NCBI GenBank assembly: GCA_000934665.2
Contig: JYFJ02002271.1
Span: 1 to 60,083 of the forward strand
Direction: 5' to 3'
Origin: Catajapyx aquilonaris
Taxonomy: Eukaryota
DNA: 60,083 nt
Numbering within the stretch: the first letter of the stretch is position 1; each line of letters opens with the position of its first letter. Positions 10,706 through 49,155 of the stretch are shown here, piece by piece. Under the pieces are notes generated by a model. It ran no database searches and was not told the origin of the DNA. It saw only the letters and a program-made list of their open reading frames with translations. A program made the translations under genes and the position numbers.

Positions 10706-11624
10706 ATGCGGTTGTACCTTCTGGCTATGTTGGTCGGTCTGGCCGTCGCAGATGTCAACTTCCAGAATGGGAACTTCAAGGCGTCGTGGTCGGTTCAAGG
10801 TGACGATGTGATTTTCGACACTGTCACCAAGACTAAAGGATGGTCCGGGATCGGATTCTCCAAAGATGGAAGCATGGAGGACTCTGACATCGTCATCGCA
10901 GGGGTCAAGGATGACGGCTCCACCTACATTCTGGTCAAAGACCTTACCACTTTTTGTTGCTAGCATTTTTGTTTGCACGCACTTGTTTAAATGACCTTTT
11001 CTTTGTATGTAGAATCGGTATGGGCTGGCTCCTGTTGGAGAACATTATTGTCCTGCTCCTAACCTCAAGCCTCACTGGAAGCTGCTGGAGGCCAAGCAGG
11101 ATGGTGAATTTTTGAAGATGAAGTTTTCCAGGCCTTTGGATGCTGGACATCCACAGAGCTACAAGTTGGAGGTAATATTTTGATCAGTCGCGAAAAAGCT
11201 GCTTTTTTTTTACTAAGCAGCTTGAAACTGGTTTCCAATGGAGTCGTTGTGTTTTGAGAATCATTTCCATACGCAACAGGTTTCTTCCTTATAATTAATT
11301 TATAAGGTTGAATTTCTGAGAATCGCAAGGTCAATGCATGTAGACTACGTGCAATGATGTTATATAAACAGGTTTTACCTAGTTTTCCGCGAATTTTTGC
11401 GAATATCAATTTAAAATTCTAGTGGAATAATATCAACAGACTGAGTCTGTCCTAAATACTCTCCCACTCATACTCAATGATTGAAAAATAAAAATTGATT
11501 CTTTCAGAGGGGCAAGTCGCATTACATGATCTTTGCCTGGAACCCAGAAGACTTCACCAATGACTGTGATTCGTACCATGGACCCAGGTTCAGGGGAAGC
11601 CAGAAGGTCAACCTTTTCCAGTAG
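10706..11624 (+). CDS. Stand-alone secreted DOMON-domain protein, 167 aa, 3 exons (10706-10933, 11013-11171, 11508-11624)
   Basis: Signal peptide MRLYLLAMLVGLAVA. DOMON motifs GWSGIGFSKDGSMEDSDIVIAG, KFSRPLD and MIFAW..YHGPRFRGS. Phase-0 GT-AG introns at the same positions as introns 1-2 of the neighbouring MOXD1-like genes. TAG stop right after the domain. Confidence 0.85.
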
Positions 11625-12990
11625 ACTGTGATCTTTCAAATAAATATATACAAATGGTAAGATAAATACGTATTATTAATTTAGAGTACTAGATATGTTT
11701 TATGTGTTTCCATTGTTTCAAAATATTTAAAAATCAACAGGATTAGTATCAAAATAACAAAAATTGCAATAATTTCGCAATTTGTTGATGCAATGCATAA
11801 AATGTTACGGCTTTCGTTTAATTTTTGTGTACTTTTACGTCTCATTGCAGGGAATGAAGAGCTGTTGCAACAGTTCTGCAGAATCGCATACAAATACAAG
11901 TATACCCTTTATAAGGAGCATGAAGAGGTGACACAGTTTTGTCGAAATGAGTTTATTGTATGTGCATAAGGATTGAAAGTACTCTACCGGTATATCAAGT
12001 ACAAGTCACCTCAAAAAAGTCAAGACTTATTCTAATACAAACTATGCACATCCTATATTACATGATGCTGCGTTATTTCTAGAAAAAAACATTGGAAATG
12101 GTTTTCTTATTTCAAATGTGTCTGTACTTTATATTTTCCATATATCCACGAAAATAAACAGAATATATCTTATCAGATCAGTATTATAATATTATTGCTC
12201 AATAATGGACCTGGACCTTGGAATCTTCAACCTCTGCCCATATTCAATGAGACCAGAGGAGATATTACATTTTATGACAAGTAGGTAAATCCTAAGATAA
12301 TTTATTATATGCTCACAGCTGACATTCTGCCTAGCTATGTCACAAAATAAATTGCACTATCAAAGAATAACGAAACACATCTGTAATGTAGTAATTACCG
12401 GAGTCCCCATTTCAGGAAGGAACGTAAATCACTGATTTCCTCCAGCATCCAGTTTATTGTTGTGCAGTGTTTTATTTTGAATTGAATATTAAGCAGGTTT
12501 ATTTGGTTATTAATATTGTGCAGTACTTGTATATATGGAAGTGATTTATTTTTTTCATTTATGACACATTACCTCAGCACTCTCTTCACAATATTATTGA
12601 TCCCGACTTCCCGAGAACTGAATTATTTGGAGTACATTTGGCGAGTGTAAGCAGCTGCCATGACTGAGCAGGGCTGCTTATTGTTAGTATGCTCATAATA
12701 AAAAATATTTTGCAAATAACATCTGCCCCTACCATGTCATTTGCTTGGCTATGATCGGCATGCACTAATAATAATTATAATCAGCAGGTTACTCACAGCA
12801 GGAAGTTTACCAAATTATGGCAGGCCTTAATTATCTCCAAACTATTGTTCAAACAGCCAATCCACATTTATTGCCTAATGACGAATGCTTACGGGGAACT
12901 GGAACTACAGCAAGAGTATTTGCATTATATCTCTCCAGCTGTATCGGACTTACCTAAAAACCTTGGTTAGAAGGGCAACACGACCAAAAC

Positions 12991-26326: not shown

Positions 26327-27345
26327 GTGGTCTCCCTACATTGATGTGTTTCATTCTGCACAACATAAAAGGGGGAGTTTTTCATTATAAAAGCATAATG
26401 TATATTATTAATACCCTACTGTGATGGCGATTCCTCCCGCTGTGTGCGGCTTACAGCACTGAAGTGATGAGCTTCACGACAGTCGGTGGCGTACCATGTT
26501 ACAATCTGTCCGTTCGTTACGGCAGCATGGAGAGATCGGCGCTGGTGTTGCCATTATATGAAAACTTTAAGATCATTACGATTTATCTTCCTTCAATGCT
26601 TCTCATGCCAACGCAACGCCGAGAGAAATGGGCGTTTCTGACATCGGAGCTCGCAGATTTTCGACACTGTTGGCGTGAAAGCGGATTTTCATGTCTCGGA
26701 CGCGTCCGTTCGTTACGCAGGCTTTGAAGACGGGCACAAGGGTATGGTTGTAATCGTAACGAAATGAATGCACTGCAAGAATTGGATTCAGCACAGCCAC
26801 ATGCTTCATACAGTTTGCTACCATTTTCCTGCTTTGTTTTGAGTTACCTGCTGTTTTTGTAGTATATTACTTGTTCTTTTCTGTCGCATTTGTAGCTTCT
26901 GGGTGTGACAGTGGGGGTCGATGCTGCTTGTATGATTTTGCTGAGGAAAATTATTACATCTTGCAGTTTTTGACTTGCTATTGATTTCGACCCTGGACCT
27001 ACCTTATTAATAGCGTTCGCAAAAGTGAAATAGTCCTGGTGTCCTGCGTGGCTGCGTTGCTCCATTTGGATCTCTTATAGGTGCAAGTTATGTATTTTTT
27101 TTTAAATTTCTTGCTTGGATTATGTTGGAAGTTTTATTTATTCATTTTTTGCTTATTTGTAAAGTTGTTGGATCACAATCACACAAGATGAGTTACAATC
27201 TGCTGAAGGAATCAAATGCAAAAATAGATAGTTTTTAAAACTCTTGATGAACCAGGAATTGTCACACAGACCACATAGACTTTTCTCGTCTGATCTGACA
27301 GTAGGCCTACTATTTTGCCACTACTAAGTTATATCATTCACCATA

Positions 27346-27628
27346 AACCGAAGCAGGTTGGCATAGTGGATAAGGCGTCCGACTGCTAATCGGAAGGTCC
27401 TGGGTTCGAATCCCGGGGTCGGCAACTCTGACCGTGGTTTTCTGTGGTTTCCCACGGTCCTTCCAGGAAAATTCCGGAGTTGTTTCCGTAATTAATAGGC
27501 CACAGCCGCTTCCTTCCGTCCCTATCCTATCCCAAAAAGTGCAGTAAAATGAAAGCAAAGAGTTCCAGGCAAAACAAAAACTTCCCCCCTAAAGAGCCGA
27601 TAGGCTGATAACGGGGTATGAATTATTA
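27346..27628 (+). mobile_element. tRNA-derived SINE, full length
   Basis: A box TGGCATAGTGG, B box GGTTCGAATCC, anticodon-arm-like hairpin TCCGA-CTGCTAA-TCGGA but an unpaired acceptor stem, (ATT)n tail. 17-bp TSD TTATATCATTCACCATA at 27329-27345 and 27629-27645. Absent at the paralogous site near 32871-32890. Confidence 0.9.
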
Positions 27629-27645
27629 TTATATCATTCACCATA

Positions 27646-27770
27646 GGGCCGGTTTCACCAAGCCCGGTTTTGATAAAACCCCGGTTCTCTCGAAAAATCC
27701 CCATTCTATTTGCAGAGATTTTCCAAAAGAACCAGGGTTTTATCAAAACCGGGCTTGGTGAAACCGATCC
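27646..27770. mobile_element. MITE with long TIRs (PIF/Harbinger-like ends)
   Basis: GGGCCGGTTTCACCAAGCCCGGTTTTGATAAAACCC is mirrored by GGGTTTTATCAAAACCGGGCTTGGTGAAACCGATCC. 3-bp TSD ATA, confirmed by the empty paralogous site CCATAGTCACG near 32880. Confidence 0.85.
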
Positions 27771-28262
27771 ATAGTCACGAAAGCGTACGTGCAGATAAAA
27801 CCAAACGTGTTCAGTTTGACAAATAAAAGATGTGCGGAAGCAAACAAAGGGGCATATGTTCGCCAATTTTATTATGATGGTTTTATCATGTTGTGTTAAG
27901 TTAAATGAACCAACCATTTTATTGTCAAATTGGAGTGTCATTATTTAGATAACTGTTAATAGCTCTGATATTTCAGTTCTTTCATGATTCTTTCGAATTC
28001 AGACGCTCTGTTAGGAGTTATCGAATCGGTAATTTCGTTGGTGCAATCTGGCATATATGTATACCTATCTCGTGCTGATTCCCTTTGCTCAGGAATTGAT
28101 TCTGAATGAATATTGTAATAATTGAGTGACGAGACTGTATAACTATATGACGTATACCGTATGGGAATGTACTTTCTATTAGAGCAAAACAATAGCCTAC
28201 CATAGAAGTATTCACCATATGCGAAAGTTTTTCTGCTGTGCACGCAAACTCGACTTCCAGCA

Positions 28263-30995
28263 ATGGAAGTACTCGGCTCTGTAATTTTCATACTCCTTGT
28301 TACTCGTATTTGTGGGCAGGATGATAATTTTCCCTCTTCATTTTTGAATGTAAAATGGTTAGATAGAGAAGGCAAGTACCTCCTCCAGTGGTCAGTCTCA
28401 CCCGATGACAAAGAGGTCTACTTTCGAGTGGAAGTGTCCACCAGGGGATACGTCGGATTCGGACTGTCCCACCACGGAAGCATGTCCCAGGCGGACATCG
28501 TCATCGGAGGGGTCTATCCGGACGGATCCAACTACTTCTCGGTGAGTCATCCGAGGGCTGCTTCAATTGCTCCAAATTCTCGAACAGTCTTTCTCGCATA
28601 TTTGTGGCCACCCTTTTGACTAACTTTTTACTAATTTGACACCTTCTGATGCCTCCCTCCCCCTCCCTTTTACCACTGCCCATCATGTACAGGATCGTCA
28701 CGGTCCAGACTTTTCCAATGGATACCCTCCAGAAGACGATCATCAGGACTGGTGGCTGGAATATGCCTCAGAAAACGAGACACACACCACCCTCGGCTTC
28801 TGGAGGAAGATGAAGACATGCGATCCAGAAGACATTGACATGACGGTAAATACTCATTGTATGTGAATAATCACATTATGTGCTTTAATTTTCATCCCAG
28901 CTTCAAGGGACGGTACGATTGATATACGCCTGGTCAGAAGATGACCCAGAAGACGGGGTGCCTCAGTACCACGGAGCAGAGAATAGAGGCGGAAACAACA
29001 TGCACTTGACTGCATTGTACACAAAGCCTGCAACACCAGAGGACGCAAAACATTGGGACATGAGAACAAACATATCCATCCCCAATGTTACATCTATTGT
29101 ACTATGCAAATTGTTAAGAGGACCTGAGATTGACGTGAAGCACCACATTATCGGAGTAAATAGATCGATTTAATGACTATATCTGATGTGGATTAATTGT
29201 GTGTATTCAGAACGTCACGTATGGACATCATTAATAATTTGGTTCAAAACAGGCTGAGCCACTATTACCTTCTGAGCACGGGGAGATCGTACATCATGCT
29301 GTCCTGGTTCAATGTAATGTCCCCGAATTTATGGCTAAACTATATTCAGAAGGTGAATATTCATCTTGCTCACAGATTATGTTTTTCTGCACTACTTCGA
29401 TCACTTCTTACTTACCCAATGAACAGGTATGTGGTATATACATCTAGTGCAAGCTTAGCCGATTGTGCTAATCCTCGTATTGATAATATTACAGGGAAGA
29501 TATCTTCCATCCCATATTGGGTTGCCTTTAAATCCTGGAGAAAATACACGCTTTCTTATACAAATGCATTTTAACAACCCACAATTAAAGACTGGTTCCA
29601 TAAATTTTGGATTCAGCCTCATTTACACAGAACATCTCAGGTGGGCTTTATTATTGTTGTTATTATTATTATTTTGATGAAGAGAACCACATGTTGCCAA
29701 ATATAATCCCTCCTCATTCCTCAAACCAAATGATGCCTCATCCATATTCCTGGGACATCTGGACATTTTTAACGAGAGTCTGGCTGTACCACCTGGTCAG
29801 GATAACTGGGTAATTCCTGCTCACTGTCCTAGCCATTGTACGGAGAAATACTTTCACGAACCGGTAAAAGTCGCCGCAGTGTTTCTTCACGCCCATCTAT
29901 TAGGTGCGTTTGATGAAGATTTGCATTACAATTATCATTAGCTGAATGCCTCTGATCATTTCCTTCAAGCCAGAACAATCAGATTGAGGCACTTTAGAAA
30001 AGAAACCGAGTTGCCTTGGATAGCAGTAGACGAACACTACGACTTTTATGCCCAATCAGTCATTTTGCTGCCATCAGAAGTGGAACTACTTCCAGGAGAC
30101 CATTTGACTCTAGGTACGTTATGTTTTGTACCTTTTCTATTTTTTTTAGAGGACCAACAATATTTCTTTCTACAATTTACAGAATGTCTCATGGATTCCA
30201 CCGGAGAAAACGAGACAGTTTTTACTGGGCACACGACCGAGAACGAAATGTGCACTGGTTCCATTTTGTATTATCCCGATCAATCACTTTCTACTTGCAT
30301 CAGTTATTCGACTCCTGATGATGTCATTAAATCCTTAGGAATTTCCGGGCTTAAAAGGTAGTGAAATCATTCTAGTGTACTTTACACAATCATCATGGAG
30401 GAGCACTGTCAAAGTGTAAATCAGATTTTGGTTTGTTGTGAACATTTTATAAACACTTTAAGTTTCCTACAAGTTGCAATCTTTGCTTTTTATAACGCTA
30501 ATGGATAGAGCCCACGTCTTATTTACATAGACCACATGAAGGCAATAGTATGCATTTCTTTTGCAGTAATGACGGTGAAGACAGCAAAGAAAGAGCAATA
30601 AAAGAGTTCGTGTCAATGGCTGACTCACAGAATTGGACCACACAGGACATGGAATCGATTAGATATCGAACTCGATATGGAACGCAACGAGCCGTGTGTC
30701 TAGGGAAGAAAATCCTGGTTTATGTAAGATAAGGTTCCTGAGTTTTGACTGATAAATTAATATCAGTGAATACATGCTACGCTTTCATCCATAGGCGAGC
30801 GACGAGGAAACCGGATATCCAGAGGTCAATGATGAATACTTCCCTCCTGATTCATGTAGTTCCGCAGCTTCATGGACTGTTCTGCCCATGGGGATTATTT
30901 CAATGGGTGCCATCGAATTTGCAATGATTTATGCATATTACGTGGTCTCCCTATTGCATTCTGCACATAAAAGTCAGAGGTTATCATTATTTTGA
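28263..30995 (+). CDS. MOXD1-like: MOXD1-like copy D, 10 exons, with a mutated exon-6 splice acceptor and an extended C-terminus (possibly a young pseudogene)
   Basis: Near-identical to C with all Cu ligands. Acceptor CCTCAG|ACC of C reads CCTCAA ACC at 29723-29724. The TAA stop of C reads TAC at 30939-30941, extending the frame to TGA at 30993-30995. Confidence 0.8.
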
Positions 30996-33864
30996 CGCAT
31001 GTTTCAATGATTATTGTAGCGACAAGGGCATGATATTTATTCCACAACATTACAGTAAGTTGCTTACTATTTTATGACTTATCTTTTGTGACCCTGTATA
31101 TATTACGTGAAAATAAAGCATACTGCATTATTGATCACACAGTTCTCACTCTTACGTACATGGTATTTTTATTAGTGGTAGATTTCGTCACCAGCACGTC
31201 GTAAAAGTTGGCCCAAAACAAGTCAAAAATTCAAGAATAGGCCTGCTAAAGCAGGAATAATTATTGAATATTTCAACATTCTTATATTCTCTCATTGATC
31301 AGATTTTCGTTCTACTTCACGATTATCATGCAATGTTGGTCATACTCAACGTGGATTGCGCAGTATAACTATTGATGTTATATACTGTGTAGGCGTGCAG
31401 CTAAGTGCTGGATGTTTGCACAGCTGTTGCCCAACAATACAGTGAAGCTAACACAATGCTTGGTGATGTTGCAATTTTTCTGCTTGCTGTCGATTAATTC
31501 AGAAGTGAGTACTGTACTCGCTAGCACAGAAATTATTCCTCTGTTACTACAAGTAGTTTCCATTCTACTTTTTTTGGCAGAGCCAGAAACTGTCATGGTG
31601 ATCGGATTTATCCAAATATTTTACACTAAAAACTGTAGGTGCATCAAATTTATGAGAGAAAATGCTCATATTTTGCAAAAGTCTATCTTAGAGATAAGAA
31701 TAAAGTTTTGTGACTTCAAGACAGTGTGTCGCCTTATAAAGAACATGCTGGTGAAATTATAGGATGGTCCATTTGGGTTCACTTTATACGGCTTACCAAT
31801 AGAATTTTGAAGTGTCATTAAGTCAGGTGACACTTTTAGGAAGGATATGAAAATAATATCGTCAATTGGGGTGAGATTGTGCCAGGTAGGGTGAGATTGT
31901 GCCAGAGCAATTTTTGGACAACAGAGCGCCCTACCGCGAATTTTACTCGTCATTACCAACATTGACCATCCCTCAATGTAGTAAAACATGCCTAAATTCG
32001 TTTGATGCCAATAGCTAGGGCGCACTGTTGGCAAGAAATGTTCTGGCATAATCTCACCCCAATTGACGGCATTTATAGACAAAATGGATGGAAACCTGCT
32101 TGAAGATGGTCTCAAACCTCGTAGCTATTGTCTCATAGGTCATAGCGGTTCGGTTCCATTATCTGACTTGTTTGACTGGTTACCCCCTCCTGACCTGAGT
32201 TTGTGGCTTTGTGCAGACAGTCTACAACAAACCTGAGCTTGGTGTTGGTCTCCCTGCGCCTCCTCTTTAAGGGATAGGTTTATTCGTTGGTTGCGAGTAT
32301 TGTAACTTGAGACTTACCGGTAAGTCTAAGAGCATAGTGACACTACTACCGCTATTACTTTTGTGATGTTCTGCTTTGTTTTGAGTTACCTGACTGTTCT
32401 TGTCATTAGTATTGCTTGTTCTTTTCTGTCGCATTTATCGCATTTGTAGCTTCTGGCCTGCTTCTGGGTGTGACAGTGGGGGTCGATGTTGCTTATGATT
32501 TTGATGAGGAAAATTACATCTTGCAGTTTTTGACTTGCTATCGCTTTCGACCCTGGACCTTACATTAATAGCGTTCGCGAAAGTGAAATAGTCCTGCGTT
32601 GCTCCATTTGGATCTCTTAGGTGCAAGTTATGTATTTTTTTTAGAATTTATTGCTTGGATGATGCTGGATAGGAAGTTTTATTTATTCATTTTTTTGCTT
32701 ATTTGTAAAGTTGTTGGATCACAAGCATACAAGATAGTTACAATCTGCTGAAGGAATCAAATACATAAATATAGTTTTTAAAACCCTTGATGAATCAAAA
32801 ATAATATATATTTTATTGTCACACATACCACAGTCTTTTCACGTCAGATCTGACAGTATTATTTTGCCTCTATCATTCACCATAGTCACGAAGGTTCACG
32901 TGCAGATAAAACCAATCGTGTTCAGTGTGACAAATAAAAGATGTGCGGAAGCAAACAAAGGAGCATTATGTTCGCCTATTTTATTATGATGGTTTTATCA
33001 TGTTGTGTTTTTAAGGTATAAATGAACCATTTCATTGTCAAATTGGAGTGTCATTATTTAGGTAACTGTTAATATTTTAAAGGAAGCAGCAGCTCTGATA
33101 TTTCAGTTCTTTCATACCATTTCGAATAATCAATCAAGGGAAGATTGTTGCCAAAATGAAGTGCAATGTGCCCAAGTCCAAGCCCAAGTCATAAGCTTGG
33201 CAACATAAAGTCCAATTTTTTTCCAATTTTTTGGACTACTAATTAAGCTAAATACTTGTGGCTTAACCGTACATCATACGATTTATCATACCTTTTCCAT
33301 GAAAATAATTGTGTTGCATTTATCCGACAAATTGGATCAAAATGATTATTTTTTCTTTTCTCAACATGATTGGATCTGGAGAACTTGTGCCCGTTTGGAA
33401 ACAAGTTCTTCAAAACAAAGCTTAAGCTGAATTTGTCTATTGCTTAAAGATGCTGATATAATATGCTCATGTTCAATTAAAGTCAATAATAAGCACAGAC
33501 AGACAGTTCATACTGAGAGGTAAACGAAAGGTTTTCAAAATTAATTTTATTTTCAGCTATACTTAGCTTAGACTATAAGTTAATTTCTTGGGACACAACG
33601 TATCACTACATTCATTTGGGATAATAATTTTTTCAATCCATGCATGGCCTTCCCATTTCGTAGACAAAAAACATGCCATGCAGTTGATGACAATGGCAAT
33701 AATGAAGAATTCCCATACGCTCGTGACTAGCGACATAACGTATTGTTTCAACTATACATTCACCCATGGAACAGCTGCCTGTACCATCTGCTGACTCTAA
33801 AGCAACGCATTTGGCGGTTTACTTTCTAAAGCTTCACATACAGTCATACAGTCAGTTTCCCAAA

Positions 33865-36800
33865 ATGGAGACACACACGGCAATTACTGCTCTGCTCATC
33901 GTGTCCATGACTTTGCTTGGACAGGGCCATACATTCCCCGATTCTTTCGAGAGGTCTAAATGGCTGGACACCCTGAAAGAGTCTTACCTCCTTCGGTGGT
34001 CAGTCTCACCCGATGACGAAGAGGTCTACTTTCGAGTGGAAGTGTCCACCCGGGGATACGTCGGGTTCGGTCTGTCCCACCACGGAAGCATGTCCCAGGC
34101 GGACATCGTCATCGGAGGGGTCTATCCGGACGGATCCACTTACTTCTCGGTGAGTCCCGCAATTTACCAGAGAGAGGAGTGCATGTTTGTAATCAGTCGT
34201 AAGGCAGTCTTAAGTGAGGCTTGGTCAAATAAATATGTTGTGTGCATCCTGTGTATTATACGACCAGCACAATCACAATATTTTGCCTATATCCACTGCC
34301 CATCATGTACAGGATCGTCACGGTCCAGTCTCCTCGAATGGATACCCTCCAGAAGACGATCATCAGGACTGGTGGCTGGAATATGCCTCAGAAAACGAGA
34401 CCCATACCATCCTAGGCTTCTGGAGAAAGATGAAGACATGCGATCCAGAGGATATTGACATGACGGTAATAATTGATCAGTATATGAAAAACAATTATTA
34501 GTGACTTGACATGGCACACCAATTACCTAGCTCCAAGGTACAATGATATTGATATACGCCTGGTCAGAAGATGACCCAGAAGATGGGGTACCACAGTACC
34601 ACGGGGCAAAGAACAGAGGAGGAAACAACATGCATTTGACTGTCACGAACACCAACCCAGACGTTTTCGACAGTGCAAAATACTTTGACTTGCGTCTGAA
34701 TATAACCATACCAGATGTCGAGACATCCATTTTGTGTAAGGTGTTTCGAGGGCCTGACATCGACGTAAAGCATCACATTATTGGGGTAAGTTCAACAATA
34801 ATTTGGACTGTCAATTTGCGTAAGAAATTAGTGCATTGGAAAAATTAAATTAATTCTTATTACGATGGCCGCACTAAAATGATTTACAATTTATTTATTT
34901 TTGCCACAAATACAGTGCCCGTACCGTGCGGCAGATAGTAACATATTATAGATAGGATCCTCCTTGAGCCGAATACACAGGAGTCATGGGTGTGGCACCT
35001 CTCCGGGCCCTCCAGGACCAATTCTTTGGAGGTTCGGCGCACGTCCTCCCGAACAACTGCTTACAGTCAACAATGTCCTCGCAATTGCATCAGCGACGGA
35101 GTTTTTTTTCATGGATCTGAACAGGTGACAGTCAATGGGGACCAAGCCGGGTGAGTGTAGCGGATGTGGAAGCACCCAAACCCATATCCCTGGAAAAAAA
35201 CCCTTCGCCGACGCCATTTCGAGATTCGAGGACACTGTTGATTGTGCACAGTTGTCCGGATGTGGGTGCGTCGCACCTCCAAAAAGTGGTTCCTGGAAGG
35301 CCTGGAGAGGTTGACACACCTGTGGTTGTATGGCATTCGGCGGACACCATATCCCCTCCTCCAAACTGCTTCGGTACAATAAGATATACATAATGGGGAA
35401 AGTATATAGTGAGAAACCACAAAAGAAATGGTCGGTTGTATATAATTATATAGTGTTTACAATCTGGGTGCAATTCACAATGATATAATAATAATTATTG
35501 TTGCAATAAACTCTACACTGCCTCTGCTTAATGTAACATAAACAATATTTCAAATTGGTGTGTCCCTGACAAAATAAGTCACTAGTGAATTAACACTGCC
35601 AATGATAATGGGTTAACATTATTACTCGAGTTGGAAATTTGATGATTCGCGAGTACAGGCGGCCATAGAGTGGTTACACGTATTCACAAGGAATCTTGCA
35701 ATAAGTTGATTACGGTTAGAAGAAAAATGGCAAACGGAGCAGCCGAATGTACCTTTATATATGTGGATAATTATTTCAGAAAATGATATGGGCGTTTCAC
35801 TTTAGATCCGGGACACTTCACACATTCCAATATGAATATGGAAAAAGCACAGGTCAATCCAAGCAGCCAAATGTTAAACATACCAGAGAGTTTCTTGACA
35901 GTCAGAACCTCTTCTGCCACGTGGGATGCTGCATATCTTTCTTCTTCGGCCCGAATGTCCTTCAGATTTCGGAGGAGGTTCATGTACTGCTCTTGCTCCA
36001 CGAATCGGTTAATAAGATCGCTCTCAAGATACATTCGAATAACATTGTTGTAGAGACGAAACAGTGCGACCTGTCCTCTGGGTACTGATCCTGCTGTGAA
36101 TGAAGGAAATAACTTGTCTGTGCAGAATTTTACTTTCAGTTCACCCAAACTGCTTGTGCATCGATACATTTCACGCTCCAGCATCCAGCTAACTCCAGAG
36201 CAAACGAGATTCTCATGGTCCACTTTATCTAAGCACTCAGGGATGCTGCCTCCTAATTTCATCCTCTCCACCCATTTGTTAGCGAATGTGTCATTAGCCA
36301 ATGCAGCGAATTTTTTTATTGCGAGAAACTCCAGCATGGTGACTTCGGCTTCCCAATTGTAATCAAGAAATTCATTCAATGTGGCAGGTACGAATTCCTT
36401 CGGAGGGTACGTGAGAAAGGAAACCAACTTTGCCTTGTATCCAACAATAATCACTGTCGCAAATAAGAAGAAAAAGAAAGCGTGGAAAATGGAGAAATGT
36501 GTAGAGGTGAGATCCATGGGCTGCTCTATAATGTATCGGATGACATATCCAGCCGATTTAGGAAGGGACAGGTGGCTCTTATCTGTGCGATTACAACGAG
36601 AGAGATAATGAGTGGCGATCGACAACAAAATTAGGCTTGCTAAGAACAACACCCAAAACAGCAGAGGATAAGGTCTGAATATCACTCCCCATGACACGAC
36701 ACCTTTTGGCTTCCTGGTCAGGAATGTCCCATGCCCATAAAAGTGAACATACGTGGCACTGAAAATTGCGAAAGTGTCTTCAGTGAGAAATGCAACTGGA

Positions 36801-39800
36801 GTGAAGTCCGATTTGTTGTAGATGAGACTGCCGGTAATGCCATCCCATGTCCCGTTCGGATACTGGAATTCAGGGTCCAGACTGTTAATAGGCTGCAAAC
36901 TTGCCTCCACCCTGGCACCCAACAGTTCTTCAGTGACGAGTGCGGCCCTGTCGTAGATAGAAACGGAGATCTCCCCTTCCATCTTCTTCTTCTCTCTTGC
37001 TTCTTCTAGCTCGATATCGAAGTAAAATCTCAGCCTCAGCACTTTCCCATTCACATGCTTGGTCTCGTCTCTGAACAGCTGTTGTAAGTGTTCAAAACCT
37101 TTCTTCCGACCTGGAGTGAATGATCCTATTTCTTGAACCAAGTGATCCCCACCCTCTCCGCAGAAGAAGCAGACTTCGCTCACCTGAAGAAATCCCGACA
37201 CATCAGTGGTTGTTGTTGTTGTGATGGCTTGTAGCCTGAGGGAACTTCCAGGCGGAGTGGTCATGAGTCGACGGATCTCTTCCTTTGAGGATTGGGATGA
37301 TGTGAAGTGGATGAGGAAGAGGTCCTCCCCTGGCAAGAGCCTGACCGAGGAGGCTGTGTACATGAGCAGATGCGCGAAGGACCCGGTGGTCTTGGGCATG
37401 ATGAGGTGCAGGGTACAGGAGAGACCCGACCAGAGACGGGACTGGAGACGAGGAGGAACCGAGGTGAAGTCCAGCAGCTGTTCCTGCTTGGTCAGCCAGG
37501 GGTAATCCTCGTACGAGTGCGGGTAACTCTTCATGAGGACAGGGAGTGCGGGCAAGTACTTGTTGGCGTGATGGGTCATGACCTTCTGGATGGGAGAGGG
37601 TAGGAAGGCAGAGTCGGTCGAGACCACCAGTGTGCACTGCTCCAGGTCTTCCCTTCGAAGGATTTCCCTCACCAGGAGAGCCACTGACTCATCCTCTTCC
37701 TGATGCTCATCCCTCAGGACGACACTAGTCTTCATTCCCAAACCAAGGTTAATCAGGACAAGCCCCACAAACACGCATGCAATAGCCCCCATGTTGGGTC
37801 TCATACTAAACCTCTCTCATACTAAACGCCCCAACAATCGTGAAATCCACGTCGCACTGCAAATTACAGACATTACAGATATGTGGAAACGTAAGCCTGA
37901 AGTGTACCTGGAAGGCGATGATTGGCGTAATTATACTATGGTCGACAACTTGCGAAATTGGATGTTGTATAAATAATTTAATTTATAAGTAGACTATTTC
38001 GATTGAAGACACTAATAAGTAATGGGCAACGAAGTGAAACAACTGTTTCTGATTTCTTTCGAATCTCCAGATCAAGCTGATATCCAATCTATGCACACAC
38101 AAAATTCTGAAATGGGGGTCTGAATGAAATGGGGGTCTGAATTGACTATTTATGAAAATGAAAAGTTAATTTCCATAACACGATGAGGATCCAAAAATTT
38201 TGCGAGGCCATATGCAATATATTGTCGTTGAATTACGATTAATTATTTCTTTGTACTTTATTTAAACACTTGCGAGTTGAAATAGGGACTATTGTGTCTA
38301 TAATAATATTAATATGCAATGTTGTGAAACATGAGGAACTGTTTGCGATTTCCATCACATCTGATCATGCTGATATCCTGCTATAATGAAGCCAAGGGGC
38401 AACACCGTACATTTTAAAAATATTAACAAGATGCAGTTCAAAAACAAATAGTCATCAATGTAAGTGACACCATTTTTTTACACTCTCGGGAAGTTAGTTC
38501 AAAATTATTGCCACACTCATAGTCAGAGATTCATCAAAGGTATCAATCGTTATTTTAACATTCTCAACAATGATCGTATAGGCCTACTCTAACCTACTCT
38601 AATGCAATAAAAATAAAACAGGCTCGGAAATATCCGAATTTGTATTTATCTCACTTCGCCCATTTTTTGACATACGTTGTTTTCCAAAGAAACCCCTCAG
38701 TTGTAATTAATTTTGTAATCAATAATACTACTAATATTTCTTGTTGTGATTTAAACAGGTTTCAACGCTACCTGCAACAGAGCACCCCGGCGTTGTGCAT
38801 CACGGTTTGTTGTTCCAGTGCCATTTCCCTCCTCTGTTGGCCGATCAGTTTTTGACGTCAGATTCGGTGCAATTTCATTCAGCAATTGTGTTTTGTAACA
38901 CACTGACTGGAGCCTATACACCTAATCGAGAGGTAGGAGAGTATTATTATTATTTTTATTCAGTTAATAATCTTACAGTATAATGCCTGGCTCTGTCAAC
39001 GCATTCAATTTACTTTTCAGGGGTACTCTTTGCCTTCCAATGTCGGATATCCTCTGAATGCAGGAGAAGAATCATATTATCTTCTTCAAGCTCATTATTA
39101 CAATCCTTTATTAAAATCAGGAGCAAGTAACTTCGGATTTCGCCTATTCTACACTGATAACCTTAGGTGATGCTAATAATATACTGCTATTGATATAGTC
39201 GGAGCATGGTCTATAATAGGAGGGATAATTAGGACTCGTTTCCTGAAAGCAGTGCCATTGCTTTCAGGAAACGAGTCCTAAAGCACCATGAATGCTTCAC
39301 ATATTTTTATTATAATCGTTAAATTGGTAAGGAGATAATAGAAATGTGATACATTCTGCATCCTCAGGCCAAATGATGCGACAACAATGCTTGCTGGGCA
39401 TTTAGACTTGTACGGGAGGAATCTTTTAATTCCCCCCGGACAGAAGGATTGGGTCATCTCGGGTCACTGTCACCATCAGTGCACCGAGAAAGCCTTTCGT
39501 GAACCTGTGAAGATATATGGAGTTACTCTGCACGCTCATCTGTTGGGTAACCTGCAACCAAACTATATTTTATTACGTTATGTATGATCAATGACAATAT
39601 ACTGTTTGGTTTTTTCAGCCAGAACTATCCGATTACGTCACTTTCGAAACGGAACTGAGTTGCCCTGGATAGCAAATGACGAGCACTACGACTTTTACTC
39701 TCAAGAATTCGTCTTATTGCCATCGGAAGTGGAAGTGATGCCAGGAGACCACCTGACTGCAGGTATTCAGCATGTTCAAATATTAAGTAAAATGTCAATA

Positions 39801-40621
39801 ATTGTAGTTGGAATTTGCTGTGTTGTTTATTACGTATATGTTTCAAAACTACAGTATAACGCCCTATGCATATTTACCTATGTTGTATACTGTACCAGTT
39901 TCTATAAACTTCAAGCCTTTCTTTTACAGAATGCTTCATGGATTCGACTGCAAAAAATGTTAGTGTTTTTACGGGGCAGGACACCGATGACGAAATGTGC
40001 GCTGTATACATCGGGTATTATCCAGCACAAGCAATGACCTTATGTACTAGCACAGTCAACCATGACGACATGCTGAATATATTGGGAAACTACTTAAAAA
40101 TGTATTCATCTATACATTATAGAGACACTTTTCTACCATAGTTTCATATTTATTTCATTTATTTTACTTGCATTATTTTTATACTTGAATTTTGAGAACT
40201 GAAATAAGTTTCTTCTCAGGGATTCAAATTTGCCAGGATCATCTAAAGAGAACCATGTAAGTGAACACTTGGCAACAATTGACTCTCAAAACTGGGAGGG
40301 ACAAGACATGGGGACTCTTCGTAATCTAATTCGCTACGGATCCCAAAGACCTCTTTGCATGGCGAACTCACTGCTGCCATTTATTCCTGTAAGTTCATCT
40401 TACTAAAGAAAGCACCGAACGTTGTCTGATTGTAATAAACAACATGTTCTCATCCACAGGTTACGGATGAATCAACAGGTTACCCGGAGGTCACCGAAGA
40501 ATTCACCCCTCCTGATACATGCACTTTGACCTCTTCTAGTATCACGATGCATCCTGCGAACATTATGTCAATGTTCTTTACCTTATTTGTTCTGATTATC
40601 GTATCTCAAACGATATTTTAA
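33865..40621 (+). CDS. MOXD1-like: MOXD1-like copy E, apparently intact, 10 exons, with a 4-kb intron 3 (34786-38758)
   Basis: Signal peptide METHTAITALLIVSMTLLGQG, DOMON exons 1-3. Exon 4 resumes in phase 0 at 38759 (VVHH), followed by QAHYYNP, HAH and EMC. Last exon 40460-40621 has a hydrophobic tail. Confidence 0.85.
34984..35400 (-). mobile_element. Degenerate mariner transposase fragment
   Basis: Translation VLPHPLHSPGLVPIDCHLFRSMK resembles the mariner motif HPPYSPDLAPSDYHLFRSM, preceded by NAIQP (cf. HDNARPH). Confidence 0.7.
35771..37804 (-). CDS. Divergent intronless ionotropic receptor (variant iGluR chemoreceptor, IR family), 677 aa
   Basis: Signal peptide, S1 lobe NGTWDGITGSL, pre-M1/M1 VIFRPYPLLFWVLFL, M3-like GYKAKLVSFLTYP, S2 region, terminal TM after LTVKKLSGMFNIWLLGL. 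A single-exon structure is typical of divergent arthropod IRs. Confidence 0.88.
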   Translation of the reverse strand: MRPNMGAIACVFVGLVLINLGLGMKTSVVLRDEHQEEDESVALLVREILRREDLEQCTLVVSTDSAFLPSPIQKVMTHHANKYLPALPVLMKSYPHSYEDYPWLTKQEQLLDFTSVPPRLQSRLWSGLSCTLHLIMPKTTGSFAHLLMYTASSVRLLPGEDLFLIHFTSSQSSKEEIRRLMTTPPGSSLRLQAITTTTTTDVSGFLQVSEVCFFCGEGGDHLVQEIGSFTPGRKKGFEHLQQLFRDETKHVNGKVLRLRFYFDIELEEAREKKKMEGEISVSIYDRAALVTEELLGARVEASLQPINSLDPEFQYPNGTWDGITGSLIYNKSDFTPVAFLTEDTFAIFSATYVHFYGHGTFLTRKPKGVVSWGVIFRPYPLLFWVLFLASLILLSIATHYLSRCNRTDKSHLSLPKSAGYVIRYIIEQPMDLTSTHFSIFHAFFFFLFATVIIVGYKAKLVSFLTYPPKEFVPATLNEFLDYNWEAEVTMLEFLAIKKFAALANDTFANKWVERMKLGGSIPECLDKVDHENLVCSGVSWMLEREMYRCTSSLGELKVKFCTDKLFPSFTAGSVPRGQVALFRLYNNVIRMYLESDLINRFVEQEQYMNLLRNLKDIRAEEERYAASHVAEEVLTVKKLSGMFNIWLLGLTCAFSIFILECVKCPGSKVKRPYHFLK
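39229..39281. repeat. Short near-perfect hairpin in intron 5 of copy E
   Basis: TTAGGACTCGTTTCCTGAAAGCA-GTGCCAT-TGCTTTCAGGAAACGAGTCCTAA: 23-bp perfect stem. Confidence 0.85.
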
Positions 40622-41901
40622 TGTGGTTCTTGGAATGCGTGACAATACTGATTATACACCGGAGTTATTTGCTCAAAGTGAGCCGGAGTCTTGCAATAAA
40701 CATGCTGCAATAACGAGACTTATATTCGGCACATGATGCTGAGAGTGTGACGCACATAAATCTGAAATGTAGGCACTTTGACTTTCAGCAGCACTGAAAT
40801 ACCTTATTTCAAATTTGCAAGTCAATAATTTCACATATGCGATTGTGTAATTATTCAAATGCGGTTTTTAATAAATTCCATTATTCCAGTGGAGCACTTT
40901 ACGACGTCCTATCGGTACCTAGGCCTGCCTATACCAGTGTGGGCACACTTTATCTACTGGGGGACCCAGACAGAAACTCACAAGCTTGCATGTCATAATG
41001 CTCTGTGTCAGTGTCTATGACGCAAATACTGTAGGCAGCCATCTGGCACAGGCTTTGAGGCTTGAAACAATGCAATGCAATGGCTTTAATACAATAAAAG
41101 TAAATCTGGAGAGTGAGCGTTGGGATTAATGATCCATCACATAGACCCACAATAATATGCAAAATAACCTCCCAACGAGTTGTCTACCACAAAGTCTACT
41201 TGTACAGTATTGTTTTTAAAGAAGTTGAAAATTGTGATCTAAATTTGGACACAGCAAAAGGAGTTAGTTTTTTCTCCATATGAGGTCCCGGCTTAGATAT
41301 AGTACGGGACAGTGAGCGAGTATTGATAATATTGTATCATTGCATAAAATATTATTGGTATTTATACACATGTTTAAATGTTAGGCCTTTGAATATAGAC
41401 TATTTTCATACTCATAAATATCAGTAATATATTTTTAATAGTAATCACTCTATGTTAATGTTCCTGCCACTTCCACTCAAAAGTTCTTATAGTAGTGTCT
41501 GCAAAACACACTATAATAAGGGATGGAGGATGGAGCAATAATGTAGGCTAATATTTTTGGAGTATACAGTATTATGTCAGAGACACAGTGATAATGAATA
41601 ATATTGTAATGGGATAATAATTATTCATGCGTCAATTACAGTTCATGTGTGTTATATTGCAAGGTATAAAGAGATCCTTTGAAAATTGCAATCACAGCGT
41701 ACAGAATGATTCATTCCTTTTCTAAGATGGCAGTTGATAGTAAATATAATCACATGATCATTTTGTTTTCACCTTTAGTATTTTTGGCTTGACCTTAATG
41801 TACTACGTTGGTAAGACCTGATGATGCAGGCATGCACACGTAGCTTACTGCTATGACGATTACGCCAGACATGATGCATATGGTAAACCATCGAGATCGA
41901 G

Positions 41902-41908
41902 TATAAAA
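41902..41908 (+). promoter_or_regulatory. Candidate TATA box of copy F
   Basis: GTATAAAAG about 110 bp upstream of the ATG at 42012. Confidence 0.5.
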
Positions 41909-42011
41909 GAGTCAAACAATAGCGATAAGAGAGCTCGACTCTGGTGTACTCACGAAAGGTATAGAAATGTAACCAACACCCTGTTCAGGCAGCAACACTT
42001 GTTATCCAACC

Positions 42012-45000
42012 ATGGAACCACCTGCAGCCATCGTGTCTCTCCTCCTCCTCCTTTCCATTGTGTTTGGACAGGGCCAGACATTCCCCGATTCATTCGAGAG
42101 GTCAAAGTGGCTGGACATCCCGAAGGAGTCTTACCTCCTCCGGTGGTCAGTCTCACCCGATGACCAAGAGGTCTACTTTCGAGTGGAAGTGTCCACCCGG
42201 GGATACGTCGGGTTCGGACTGTCCCACCACGGAAGCATGTCCCAGGCGGACATCGTCATCTGAGGGGTATATCCAGACGGATCCAACTACTTCTCGGTGA
42301 GTTCCCGTCCAGAAATACGTACCAGAGAGAGGGGTGCAAAGAGTTTGCAGTCAGTCGTAAGCCAGCTTTAAGTGAGACTAGGTCAAATACATATGTTGTG
42401 TGCATCCTGTGTATTATACGACCAGCACAATCACAATATTTTTCCTATATCCACTGCCCATCATGTATACAGGATCGTCACGGTCCCGACTCTTCGAACG
42501 GATACCCTCCAGAAGACGATCATCAGGACTGGTGGCTGGAATATGCCTCAGAAAACGAGACACACACCACTCTCGGGTTCTGGAGGAAGATGAAGACATG
42601 CGATCCAGAAGACATTGACATGACGGTAAAAGAAGTCTCAATTAAACACCATGAAACACATACGTGGCGTGACATTGCACACTAATAACCATCTCTTACA
42701 TGTAGCTTCAAGGGACAGTGAGGGTGATATACGCCTGGTCAGAAGATGACCCAGAAGATGGGGTGCCTCAGTACCACGGGCCAGAGAACAGAGGAGGAAA
42801 CAACATGCACTTGACTGCAATGGACACGAAGCCCCAATCACTGGACGAGGCAAAACACTGGGACATGCGCTACAATGCATCTATCCCGGACACTGAGTCA
42901 GTCAATTTTTGCAAGGTGTTTCGAGGGCCTGAAATCAAAGGAAAGCATCACTTGATCGGAGTGAGTCGCATATACTTTAGCAATCAAACAAATAGTATTG
43001 ACTATACGTACACTGTAAGCTGCAAAACATTAAAAGAACATCACTGGTGAATCTCCCATGGAGCATAAATTTTTAATACCCTTGTGGTGCTTCTTTGTTG
43101 CTTAAAACCATCACAAGAGCATTAAAAGAGCATTAACAATTTATTGATGCTCCATGGGAGACTCACCAGTGATGCTGTTTTTATGTTTTGCGGTTTACAG
43201 TGTAGGTGACACACTCTTGTGGTATTTTCATTACATCCTGCTGTACAAACACAAACAAAGTTTCGGCCAAACGTATCCTCGCTCTGTGCAGACATAAACA
43301 TTCTAGTAACGTGAAGTATATAATTACGAAGAAAGAAAAATCATGATAATGTGGATGGTTGTAACGTTTTGCCTGAAAAGATTTCCCACACGAGTTCTTT
43401 TATTATCTTTCGCAAGTCTGAACCGTTGCTGCCATCAGACAATGCTGACCTCGTACATCACGCCACCTTGTGCCTCTGCAACTTTCCCAACACTTGGCTG
43501 GGTCAGAAATACGAAGAAATGGACACTGTAGCATGTGCTACTGCGCAACTATTCTGCAAAACAGCCATTACAGGCTACTTGCCTGGGCAAGAGGTAAGAA
43601 ATTACAGCATTTAATAATTGGACACTGCTGTTTATTGTACTTATATCTTTGTCTCAAGCGTTGCTTTGGTGGAGACCCTATTTTGAAATTCCACCCACTC
43701 CCGGGGATCATTCACTGTGACACAATGAGTGCGATAATTATCAGGATAGGAAAGACCGGGAAAGACAGGGGGTTCTCATAAGCCATGCATCTGACAGTAG
43801 GCCTACACATGGAATATAATCATATGCAAGGCATGATGACACCACGTCTTGCCAAGCCTCATATCGCTCTCAGTTATCACAGTGGGTGATCTGGAGAGGG
43901 TTGGACCTTAGACCGTGGGTTGACATACTTTATATTCCTCGGGAGATATAATATTATATAATATTATAACACTGCTTATTACTCTCTGGAAACATAGGGA
44001 CGTTATCTGCCGTCCAACGTGGGATTTCCTTTGCAGCCCGGAGGAAGCCAATATTTTTCAATTCAATTGCATATTAACAATCCACAATTAAAATCAGGAA
44101 GAAACAACTTTGGATTCCGGGTTCATTACACTGATCATCTCAGGTGAGAATATGATTATCACTATTCCCTATACTCTATTCTGATGAAAGTTAAAGTTTA
44201 TTGTCAGCAGAACAAACCACAAACCATTGCATCATGGGAACATAATTATAATTGATCAACTCCCATAGTTTGGTCAGCTGTGGCACAACGCACCCTAATA
44301 ATTCGATTATTAATTCTAATATTAGTTTACTATATATAGTGAGTGCGTGGTTGAACATTGGCACTTTTTTCCCCTTCCACTAGACCAAACGATGCTTCCA
44401 CTGTTTTCATGGGATATCAAGGTCCTTGGTATAATTTGGGTTTACCCACACCTCCCGGTCAGAAGGACTGGGTCATCACGGGTCACTGTCACCACCAATG
44501 CACCGAAAAAGGACTTCGAGAACCTGTGAAAGTATTTGGCGTGTTACTTCATACCCACCCTTTAGGTAATCTGTGCCGTTAGCCTTTTGCATAAAAAGTT
44601 ATTCAGTGACAATATTACTGCTTACTTCCACAGGCAGAACAGTCAAAATACGTCACTTTAGAAACGGAACAGAGTTGCCTTGGATAGCAGTGGACGAGCA
44701 TTACGACTTTTATGCTCAAGATTTTGTGTCATTACCCTCCGAAGTTGAGGTGATGCCTGGAGACCATTTGACTCTAGGTGCACGTATAATGATTAGTGAC
44801 ATATTTAACACGTAGGCCCCTACTCTACAGTTATATAAACCATTTCTGTACTGCCTTTTACAGAATGCACGGTGGATTCGACTGGACAAAATGCGACTGT
44901 ATTAACCGGACCAAATACGGAACAAGTAATGTGTACTGCAGTCATACTCTATTATCCGGCGCAACCAATATCCGTTTGCATCAGTAACTCCGAACCCGAC

Positions 45001-45648
45001 GATCTGCTGAATGTTCTTGCAATTAGCTCGCTGAAAAGGTGATCAACGACAAACCTTCTGATTTATTACACTTTGTGAGGATACTCGAGGGCTTCATTTG
45101 GTATTGTGTCCGAGCCCCATAGCTGGGGGCCATTTATGACCTGTCAATTGCTACTGTTCTCAGACCCCCTCGTGTGTTCTTCCTTCATCCCTATATTCCT
45201 ATTTTCTCGCGTGTGCTGAGTGACACTGCAACAAACACTCATTTTTATTGACAGTGGAGACACTGAGCAATCGAAGAAGCGTGCAATAAAAGAATTCCTG
45301 GCAAAGGCCGACTCCCAGAACTGGACCTCACAGGACACTGCAGAGATGCAGCACCGCTTAAGATATGGAAAGCAACGACCCGTGTGTCTGCAGAAGTCCC
45401 TCTTTCCAGTCATTCCTGTAAGAGTAAAGGCCACTAGAGCAAAGGGTGTTGTAATGCACACCTGTCTTTATCCACAGATAACCGATGAAACCACTGGCTA
45501 TCCGAACATCACCGAGGAATACACCCCTCCTGACGCATGCAGGTCAACGCAGTCTGCGTCCGTGTCTTCCTCCACCATTCTCGTGATGCATCCAAACAAC
45601 ATTATCATGGTGGTGTGTTCGACATTCCTAGTGATTCGTGCACTATAG
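42012..45648 (+). pseudogene. MOXD1-like: MOXD1-like copy F, 10 exons, single premature stop in exon 1
   Basis: GGA (Gly of DIVIGG in the paralogs) reads TGA at 42261-42263. The remaining exons I translated are open, with LVHH, QLHI, HTH and QVMC. Confidence 0.85.
43011..43202. mobile_element. MITE in intron 3 of copy F
   Basis: About 60-bp imperfect TIRs, CACTGTAAGCTGCAAAACAT..CATCACTGGTGAATCTCCCATGGAGCAT and ATGCTCCATGGGAGACTCACCAGTGATG..ATGTTTTGCGGTTTACAGTG, flanked by TA on both sides. Confidence 0.85.
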
Positions 45649-48511: not shown

Positions 48512-49155
48512 CCTTGGCATGATGACCTGACCCTGATGCCCCAGAGGCTGCCAAAGTCACACGCGAACTCACCTCCTCCCACATCATCAGTGCTTCCATC
48601 ATCCTTGGCCAAACAGACAGTGTGTTTTAAGCTCAGATTGTTCTACATTCACCACACATACTCGTACATGTATATGTATATGTTCATGCAGATGCTCCAT
48701 TCTAATACCACCTGAGTTTGGTACCATTGTTTTATTTCTGCAGCACATGAGGCACACTACCATATTGTCACTTCAAAAGCCACAAAAGCAGATGCTCCAT
48801 TCTAATACCACCTGAGTTTGGTACCATTGTTTTATTTCTGCAGCACATGAGGCACACTACCATATTGTCACTTCAAAAGCCACTAGCTTTTGAAGTGACA
48901 ATATGGTAGTGTGCCTCATGTGCTACAGAAATAAAACAATGGCGCCAAACTCAGGTGGTATTAGAATGGAGCATCTGCATGAACATATACATATACATGT
49001 ACGAGTATGTGTGGTGAATGTAGAACAATCTGAGCTTAAAACACACTGTCTGTTTGGCCAAGGATGATGGAAGCACTGATGATGTGGGACGTAGGTGAGT
49101 CCGCGTGTGACTTTGGCAGCCTCTGGGGCATCAGGGTCAGGTCATCATGCCAAGG
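48512..49155. repeat. Fold-back inverted duplication (270-bp arm, 5-nt spacer) with a 100-bp tandem duplication in the left arm
   Basis: 48886-49155 is the reverse complement of the left arm. Spacer CACTA at 48881-48885. 48688-48783 is repeated at 48788-48883. Confidence 0.92.

Follow-up and report, generated by a model that had tools for sequence, protein, structure and literature searches.

A probable lineage-specific array of remodelled MOXD1-like copper monooxygenase genes in the genome of Catajapyx aquilonaris

Contig JYFJ02002271.1 of the Catajapyx aquilonaris assembly GCA_000934665.2 (60,083 nucleotides (nt), analyzed over its whole length and referred to below as the window) carries six neighbouring genes of the DBH/MOXD1 type, designated M1–M6, together with a gene for a DOMON-only protein (D0) and a gene for a histidine-rich peptide (HIS). 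The six genes are probably part of a lineage-specific tandem array of remodelled MOXD1-like copper monooxygenases that evolves by birth and death. A single ancestor with 10 exons has been duplicated to at least eight copies, six of them located here, and the very recent duplicate pairs M3/M4 and M6/M7 each appear to be losing one member. Gene conversion between copies would keep the DOMON exons uniform while the pockets diverge. The encoded enzymes would be anchored, in the secretory lumen or at the cell surface, and each intact copy may hydroxylate a different small molecule that is not a catecholamine.

Gene array and its place in the monooxygenase family

The window is one contig of a fragmented 285.6-Mb assembly with short introns. 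Pfam was run on 32 open reading frames (ORFs), and exon models were derived from splice sites. According to Pfam analysis of exon ORFs and the exon models, genes M1–M6 are arranged head-to-tail on the plus strand (12991–45648), contain the DOMON, Cu2_monooxygen and Cu2_monoox_C domains, and consist of 10 exons and 602–630 codons each. In the analysis of single exons, the C-domain exceeded the Pfam cut-off in all six genes; the N-domain on partial exons stayed under it (E from 2e-5 to 5e-3). Amino acid identity among the six proteins was 40–64%, with the exception of M3 and M4 (96%). M1 contains neither cysteine of the DBH 232–283 disulfide.

The leaders and tails of all genes were called from hydropathy alone. 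Both the N-termini of M1–M6 (best 15-residue hydropathy 2.0–2.7) and their C-terminal tails (1.3–2.6, lowest in M2) are hydrophobic. The tails of M3–M6, which follow a Ser/Ala-rich stretch, appear to resemble glycosylphosphatidylinositol (GPI) signals. The original prediction of six DBH/MOXD1-type genes with both copper sites, a leader and a hydrophobic tail was confirmed by Pfam, exon models and hydropathy, and the DOMON-only and poly-His peptide genes were likewise recovered as spliced gene models (Table 1).

Part of the window (10500–27000) was compared with three sequencing runs, X1, X2 and X5; the altered splice acceptor of M4 and the stop codon of M6 described below lie beyond this part. 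Run X5, whose type is not on record, comes from another sample and behaves as a transcript assembly. Among the matches listed, X5 contigs skip both coding introns and a 3′ untranslated intron (11655–11850) of D0, introns 8 and 9 of M1, at least seven of the nine introns of M2, and intron 6 of an M4-type transcript; in one more contig, an exon-2 end is joined directly to the start of M5 exon 3. Since predicted introns are skipped in five transcript types, the models of the M genes and D0 were considered sound. For HIS, neither a joint nor a long piece was present among the matches listed in X5, which is no evidence either way. The depths of X5 contigs are widely spread between D0 and the M genes and are unfit for ranking genes. 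AAG splice acceptors were observed in intron 6 of M3 (25353–25355) and M4 (29967–29969) and in intron 3 of M6 (43414–43416); that of the M4 type is in use in one X5 contig.

A search of the genome with the C-domain revealed at least 42 exon matches on at least 11 contigs. Two of the related genes, M7 and M8, are close to M6 in sequence (Table 1). In addition, one TBH gene, two PHM-type genes, olf413 and a second expanded clade were modelled. The TBH protein, encoded on another contig, matches the DBH structure 4ZEL (E 4e-43), and the one PHM-type gene tested matches PHM (E 5e-43). The olf413 ortholog on contig C596 has its closest matches (62–69% identity) in a damselfly, a mayfly, cockroaches and termites, and takes a basal position with respect to insect olf413 (support 89). 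By this gene, the host is an arthropod and probably an early-branching hexapod. A homolog search by M1 exon 6 alone gave nothing among 13 candidates.

A phylogenetic tree was constructed for 69 catalytic cores (one truncated row was dropped) by a quick IQ-TREE search with support from the Shimodaira–Hasegawa-like approximate likelihood ratio test (SH-aLRT) only; its TBH (one row) and PHM (two rows) sequences all come from this genome. M1–M8 formed a single clade (SH-aLRT 99) apart from TBH, olf413, both PHMs and the second expanded clade, and this clade is located within the arthropod MOXD1-like group, where the deeper forks are weak (82–91). Thus, compared with DBH/TBH, MOXD1/2 and PHM, the genes originally described as DBH/MOXD1-type group with MOXD1-like sequences and outside TBH and PHM. 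They show no grouping with olf413 (insect MOXD1 homolog 2). The array shares the fold and copper ligands with DBH (PDB 4ZEL) and TBH, but does not group with TBH and lacks the His-His-Met-Glu and Met-Glu-Leu-Gly motifs (in the latter, the Glu is missing).

As for MOXD1 (monooxygenase X, DBH-like monooxygenase 1) and arthropod MOXD1-like proteins, the likeness includes the leader, the DOMON domain with Met and His, the CuH and CuM domains, all six copper ligands and the C-terminal hydrophobic anchor, which in the array was recognized by hydropathy. By these features, the array products are predicted to be MOXD1-like lumenal or cell-surface two-copper monooxygenases. They differ from MOXD1 in forming their own long-branched clade, in the replacement of two pocket residues (Tyr230 and Trp302), in homogenised DOMON exons and in the presence of three damaged copies. 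The DOMON of DBH has no heme ligands (PMC4846438), whereas the array DOMONs keep Met and His.

The second MOXD1-like clade comprises at least seven genes on contigs C34, C4163 and C5330 (SH-aLRT 99) and keeps the canonical pocket residues. This expansion also touches contigs C12834 and C3462; four of its genes are in tandem on C5330, and a decayed copy is present on C3462.

The statement that well-studied animals carry only a few family members holds for model animals; large families are, in contrast, present in springtails and a scallop. In Orchesella cincta, DBH-like monooxygenases make up one of the ten largest lineage-specific families (34–71 genes each) and one of those tied to metal-tolerance expression (PMC4987106). 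In Folsomia candida, they are expanded and stress-responsive (PMC5490193), and 13 copies are high in the digestive gland of the glass scallop (PMC13212745). Architecture is the same in these families and in the array, and in each case the multiple copies are lineage-specific. The springtail expansions are nevertheless independent: springtail copies form a separate springtail-plus-fly clade (SH-aLRT 100) and in most cases still have the Tyr and Trp that the array has replaced. Expansion of DBH-like monooxygenases in springtails and scallop is therefore already known, and the distinctive features here are the rebuilt pocket and the homogenisation of DOMON exons.

Copper sites, pocket residues and DOMON exons

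Pocket residues were compared in a reference alignment of 143 proteins, those 450–1000 amino acids (aa) long among 228 fetched. DBH numbering was transferred from 4ZEL alignments and calibrated on the cysteine numbers of PMC4846438. The ligands of CuH (His262, His263, His333) and CuM (His412, His414, Met487) are encoded in all eight copies, with the CuM Met behind the frameshift in M3 and all six ligands behind the stop in M6. DBH position 230 is presumably Tyr, equivalent to Tyr79 of PHM. The equivalent of Tyr230 is present in 115 of 136 relatives and that of Trp302 in 130 of 138, compared with none of the eight array copies in either case. Only one relative out of 143 lacks both, and all ten other models of this genome that cover the two positions contain both. 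The two residues thus appear conserved, though not necessarily defining, in the family. In the array, a Tyr-x-Pro/Asn-type loop replaces the Trp-Ala-x-Gly loop, and M6 and M7 have Val before the CuM Met, where 141 of 141 relatives carry Glu. Nevertheless, of 107 conserved columns, 82 are unchanged in seven or all eight copies.

The ratio of nonsynonymous to synonymous substitutions (dN/dS) in the catalytic part was 0.27 for M6–M8 and M7–M8, with no excess of nonsynonymous change between M6/M7 and M8. The two youngest pairs gave 0.51 and 0.77 on few changes, and older pairs are saturated. Taken together, the sequence comparisons show predicted copper ligands held under purifying selection, and second-shell and substrate-side residues that appear to have been rebuilt.

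The same data bear on the alternative of an array largely in decay or without catalysis, in which the ligands were kept and oxygenase activity was lost, leaving copper binders or drift. This is consistent with lesions in three of six copies, with relic exons between M2 and M3, with the loss of conserved second-shell residues including the Glu-to-Val change of M6/M7, and with the ratios of the youngest pairs. However, the frame is clean in five of eight copies, the six ligands are all retained despite silent-site saturation, the ratio for M6/M7 versus M8 is 0.27, and spliced transcripts exist. General decay was therefore judged quite improbable.

As for the damaged copies, exon 7 of M3 is longer by one base (near 25389), so that the first stop is at codon 489 and the CuM Met is out of frame; in addition, Tyr replaces a DOMON Asp kept in 132 of 137 relatives. 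M3 is a probable pseudogene. In M4, the intron-5 acceptor is CAA instead of CAG; in-frame cryptic acceptors would give either a 42-nt intron or a 138-nt intron that deletes 18 residues, compared with 55 nt for the shortest of the other 56 modelled introns. M6 has an in-frame TGA at codon 84. In this assembly, the frames of M1, M2 and M5 are intact in the array; together with M7 and M8, this makes five of eight. The original count of six enzymes therefore holds for genes that encode all ligands, but half of these (M3, M4 and M6) carry a lesion. Relic MOXD1-like pieces of exon 5 and exon 3 were also found in scrambled order between M2 and M3 (22004–22159 and 22850–23119, plus strand) and may be a sign of an earlier lost copy. 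The first piece falls within the transcribed 3′ region of M2.

Each damaged copy contains a single disabling change and the assembly is fragmented, as would be expected if M3/M4 and M6/M7 were haplotypes and the lesions sequence errors. In DNA run X1, however, pieces common to M3 and M4 have a depth of 51–81 versus 35 for single-copy sequence (~1.5–2.3 times), and 25 of 83 depth units contain the extra base of M3. The assembly may itself derive from X1, and in X2 the M4 form alone was listed at the insertion site. Upstream of its M6-like gene, contig C3044 does not match M5. Because of the read depth and the 25 of 83 units with the extra base, the M3/M4 duplication and the frameshift are probably real, and an assembly artefact was considered very improbable.

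The DOMON exons show a different pattern of divergence. At fourfold-degenerate sites, divergence was 0.09–0.20 in exons 1–2 versus 0.52–0.66 in exons 4–8 in all 11 cross-lineage pairs among M3/M4, M5 and M6/M7/M8 (Fisher p from 4e-4 to 3e-9; the pairs are not independent). M2 is homogenised with M3–M8 in exon 2 only (six of six pairs, p from 0.04 to 1e-5). No DOMON homogenisation was found for M1 (0 of 7 pairs) or in the second clade, used as control (0 of 10 pairs, one weakly opposite). The GC content of third codon positions (GC3) is 0.57–0.66 in homogenised DOMON exons versus 0.38–0.45 downstream, and flat in M1. In exon trees, the branches of M2 and M5 are long for the catalytic part and short for exon 2. 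Since silent sites, GC3 and exon trees all fit repeated, GC-biased gene conversion, we infer that this process homogenised the DOMON exons. A search of the open-access literature found no publication on the pocket replacements or on DOMON homogenisation, and nothing relevant on PHM Trp141 or on gene conversion in DOMON monooxygenases.

Several points weigh against the birth-and-death scenario for a remodelled array. The reference set is biased towards sequences of vertebrate MOXD1/2, of insect olf413 and of Orchesella, and "nearly invariant" is relative to it; several springtail copies also change one residue of the Tyr/Trp pair. The backbone that places the M1–M8 clade is supported at 82–91 only, in a quick tree. 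The lesions of M3, M4 and M6 could be alleles of one individual, and M6 and M7 might be one gene, with M7 as its intact allele. Constraint on the silent sites of the DOMON exons, for example by a regulatory element, is a conceivable alternative to conversion. Finally, a xenobiotic role is suggested by analogy with lineages whose expansions arose independently.

Free DOMON protein and His-rich peptide

D0 consists of a leader and a DOMON domain (fold by Pfam). Its Met and His occupy the Met/His positions of the MOXD1 DOMON, which we take to be heme axial ligands in MOXD proteins. D0 shares two phase-0 intron sites with exons 1–3 of the M genes, is ~30% identical to M1–M6, and has its best match (37%) in a crayfish MOXD1-like protein; according to the genome search, it is single-copy. 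The Met is located in a Ser-x-Asp-x-x-Met context, a motif known from heme-type CYBDOM DOMONs (PMC10691727). Thus, D0 resembles heme-type DOMONs (the cellobiose dehydrogenase cytochrome, CYBDOM/CG8399) in fold, Met context and C-terminal His, but it is stand-alone and predicted to be secreted, and its introns and best matches indicate a MOXD-type origin. Neither D0 exon 1 nor the exon-1 profile gave a sequence match to a heme-bound DOMON structure. D0 likely branched off long ago as a truncated derivative of this gene type and remained at the head of the array.

The product of HIS starts with a leader of 22 aa; among the 78 residues of its mature part, 57 are His, 14 are Gly and 5 are Asp. A TATA box is located near 17891–17896. 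No Pfam match and no Rebers and Riddiford (R&R) domain were found in HIS. Its DNA has close matches on contig C821 and weaker ones elsewhere. Three genes within 6 kb of C821, read by eye (two of them recovered by pattern search), have a five-codon first exon of the HIS type, a leader exon and a His-rich last exon, and adjoin Gly/His/Tyr- and Gly/Ser/Tyr-rich ORFs. In the region C821:9000–18999, small secreted low-complexity genes, at least five in number, form a series from Gly/Ser/Tyr-rich to near-pure His/Gly. Two more His-rich ORFs are located on contig C4305, where a gustatory-receptor-like ORF (7tm_7, E 3e-8) lies between His-rich small genes (L019:2964–4309).

The original prediction suggested that the enzymes, D0 and HIS may form a co-regulated module, in which D0 would pass on electrons or a ligand and HIS would supply or buffer copper for gland or cuticle chemistry. 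D0, M1, HIS and M2 lie inside 11.3 kb and are all predicted to be secreted, D0 retains the DOMON Met/His and the CYBDOM-like Ser-x-Asp-x-x-Met start, and transcripts of D0 and several M genes occur together in run X5. A peptide with 73% His must bind transition metals, and HIS will probably bind copper, zinc or nickel in vitro; nothing ties such binding to the enzymes.

On the other side, C821 and C4305, where the HIS relatives are among Gly/His/Tyr-rich genes, are absent from the monooxygenase and DOMON matches of the genome. No His-rich ORF (at least 9 His in 20 residues) was found in any of 23 stretches around the other monooxygenase/DOMON loci, which include the whole contigs of M7 and M8 and, from the second clade, C4163 and C5330. 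The His family and the monooxygenases thus occur apart in this genome. HIS is on the opposite strand and has its own TATA box. M1–M6 each carry their own DOMON with Met and His, so a free DOMON is not needed. Matches to the metal-response-element consensus numbered 35 in the window versus 39 expected, showing no enrichment. Nothing beyond adjacency therefore favours the co-regulated module; it is unsupported, not refuted, and we regard it as unlikely.

Because its paralogs cluster on C821 and C4305, away from monooxygenases, HIS is most readily interpreted as a member of a cuticle-type structural Gly/His family that was displaced and is a passenger in the array. Like His-rich non-R&R cuticular proteins, it is a short secreted low-complexity Gly/His chain with paralogs beside Gly/Tyr-rich genes. 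It contains 73% His, compared with 45% in the richest Bombyx scale protein in PMC8062583, and its cuticular location is putative.

These similarities raise the alternative that the array serves hardening of the cuticle or of a secretion, the enzymes hydroxylating side chains of N-acyl-catecholamines and HIS serving not as a metal carrier but as a substrate for cross-linking. In Bombyx, laccase-2 cross-links His-rich cuticular proteins with N-acetyldopamine (NADA) and N-β-alanyldopamine (NBAD) (PMC8062583), and catecholamine side-chain hydroxylation is the chemistry of DBH (PMC4846438); the clustering of HIS paralogs with Gly/Tyr-rich cuticle-like ORFs agrees with this. Such a role fits HIS, yet does not connect it with the enzymes: cross-linking is known to be done by a laccase, the array has departed from the DBH-type pocket, and no chitin-binding Pfam domain was found in five neighbouring ORFs from C821/C4305. 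This explanation was considered improbable.

Neighbouring features and meaning of the array

Features of the window and the two off-contig relatives are listed in Table 1. The intronless ORF in M5 intron 3, absent from the original prediction, scores as a divergent arthropod ionotropic (glutamate-type) receptor: its Lig_chan match (E 0.0024) is below the cut-off, the feature score is 0.98 with Lig_chan clusters, and about ten relatives with 71–87% DNA identity are located on other contigs. Insertion of a LINE (long interspersed nuclear element) in this intron was ruled out; its content is the receptor ORF and a repeat resembling miniature inverted-repeat transposable elements (MITEs). Downstream of the array, sequence related to the TLC-domain gene is also present near 49950–50300 and 53400–53850, which suggests a local duplication.

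Table 1. Positions of genes and other features of the window, with array relatives on other contigs
Feature	Position	Strand	Description
D0	10706..11624	+	Predicted secreted DOMON-only gene, 167 aa in 3 coding exons
M1	12991..16041	+	Intact MOXD1-like monooxygenase, 630 aa; most divergent copy of the array
HIS	16873..17791	-	Predicted His-rich secreted peptide gene, 4 exons, 100 aa
M2	18987..21949	+	Intact MOXD1-like monooxygenase, 622 aa
M3	23648..26326	+	Recent duplicate of M4, frameshifted
M4	28263..30995	+	Exons open; intron-5 acceptor altered
M5	33865..40621	+	Frame intact, 612 aa; third intron 3973 nt
Repeat	34861..35341	.	High-copy, internally palindromic, MITE-like; in M5 intron 3
Ionotropic-receptor ORF	35771..37816	-	Intronless, 681 codons, antisense in M5 intron 3
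M6	42012..45648	+	In-frame TGA in exon 1
Inverted repeat	48512..49155		Near-perfect (270 nt, 98%), with 100-nt tandem duplication
TLC-domain gene	50462..51425	+	Exons of a ceramide-synthase-like gene
Topoisomerase I-like	56398..58246	-	Gene or gene fragment of DNA topoisomerase I type, poor in introns (Topoisom_I_N, E 2e-66)
M7	contig C3044		Intact; exons 92–100% identical to M6, no stop
M8	contig C3137		Intact; exons 75–94% identical to M6

Enzymes of this family use two ascorbate-reduced copper ions, with O2 activation at CuM and C–H hydroxylation in the secretory lumen (PMC4846438). Among possible functions of the array, oxidation of dietary or environmental compounds is the leading candidate, at somewhat less than an even chance; gland chemistry is considerably less likely, and roles in the cuticle or in chemosensory (odorant) clearance are each a little less likely again. 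The xenobiotic oxidation named among the possibilities in the original prediction remains plausible in the light of the springtail and scallop expansions with stress or digestive-gland expression, but by analogy only.

A bolder reading is a system of variable catalysts and a constant adaptor. Gene conversion would keep a DOMON for docking or heme binding uniform across enzymes with rebuilt copper pockets, D0 would be a diffusible heme electron shuttle for them, comparable to the cytochrome of cellobiose dehydrogenase that feeds fungal lytic polysaccharide monooxygenases (LPMOs), and HIS would be a local copper store or product acceptor. We hold this to be a doubtful reading with a small chance of being correct; if true, it would provide the first physiological redox partner for MOXD1-type enzymes and a chemistry beyond catecholamines. 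The three-part module would have been the surprising element of the locus, and it is not supported.

The significance of the probable birth-and-death array lies in its copies. Human MOXD1 has no known substrate (PMC8067471). Enzymes of the MOXD1 type are orphans with a DOMON of obscure role, hence the value of a natural panel of paralogs. Five intact paralogs with a nearly identical DOMON, the same copper ligands and very different pockets would be ready for substrate screening and suited to exploring the role of the two conserved residues, Tyr and Trp, close to the copper sites. The array is also further evidence for the repeated use of this family by invertebrates as a battery comparable to that of cytochromes P450.

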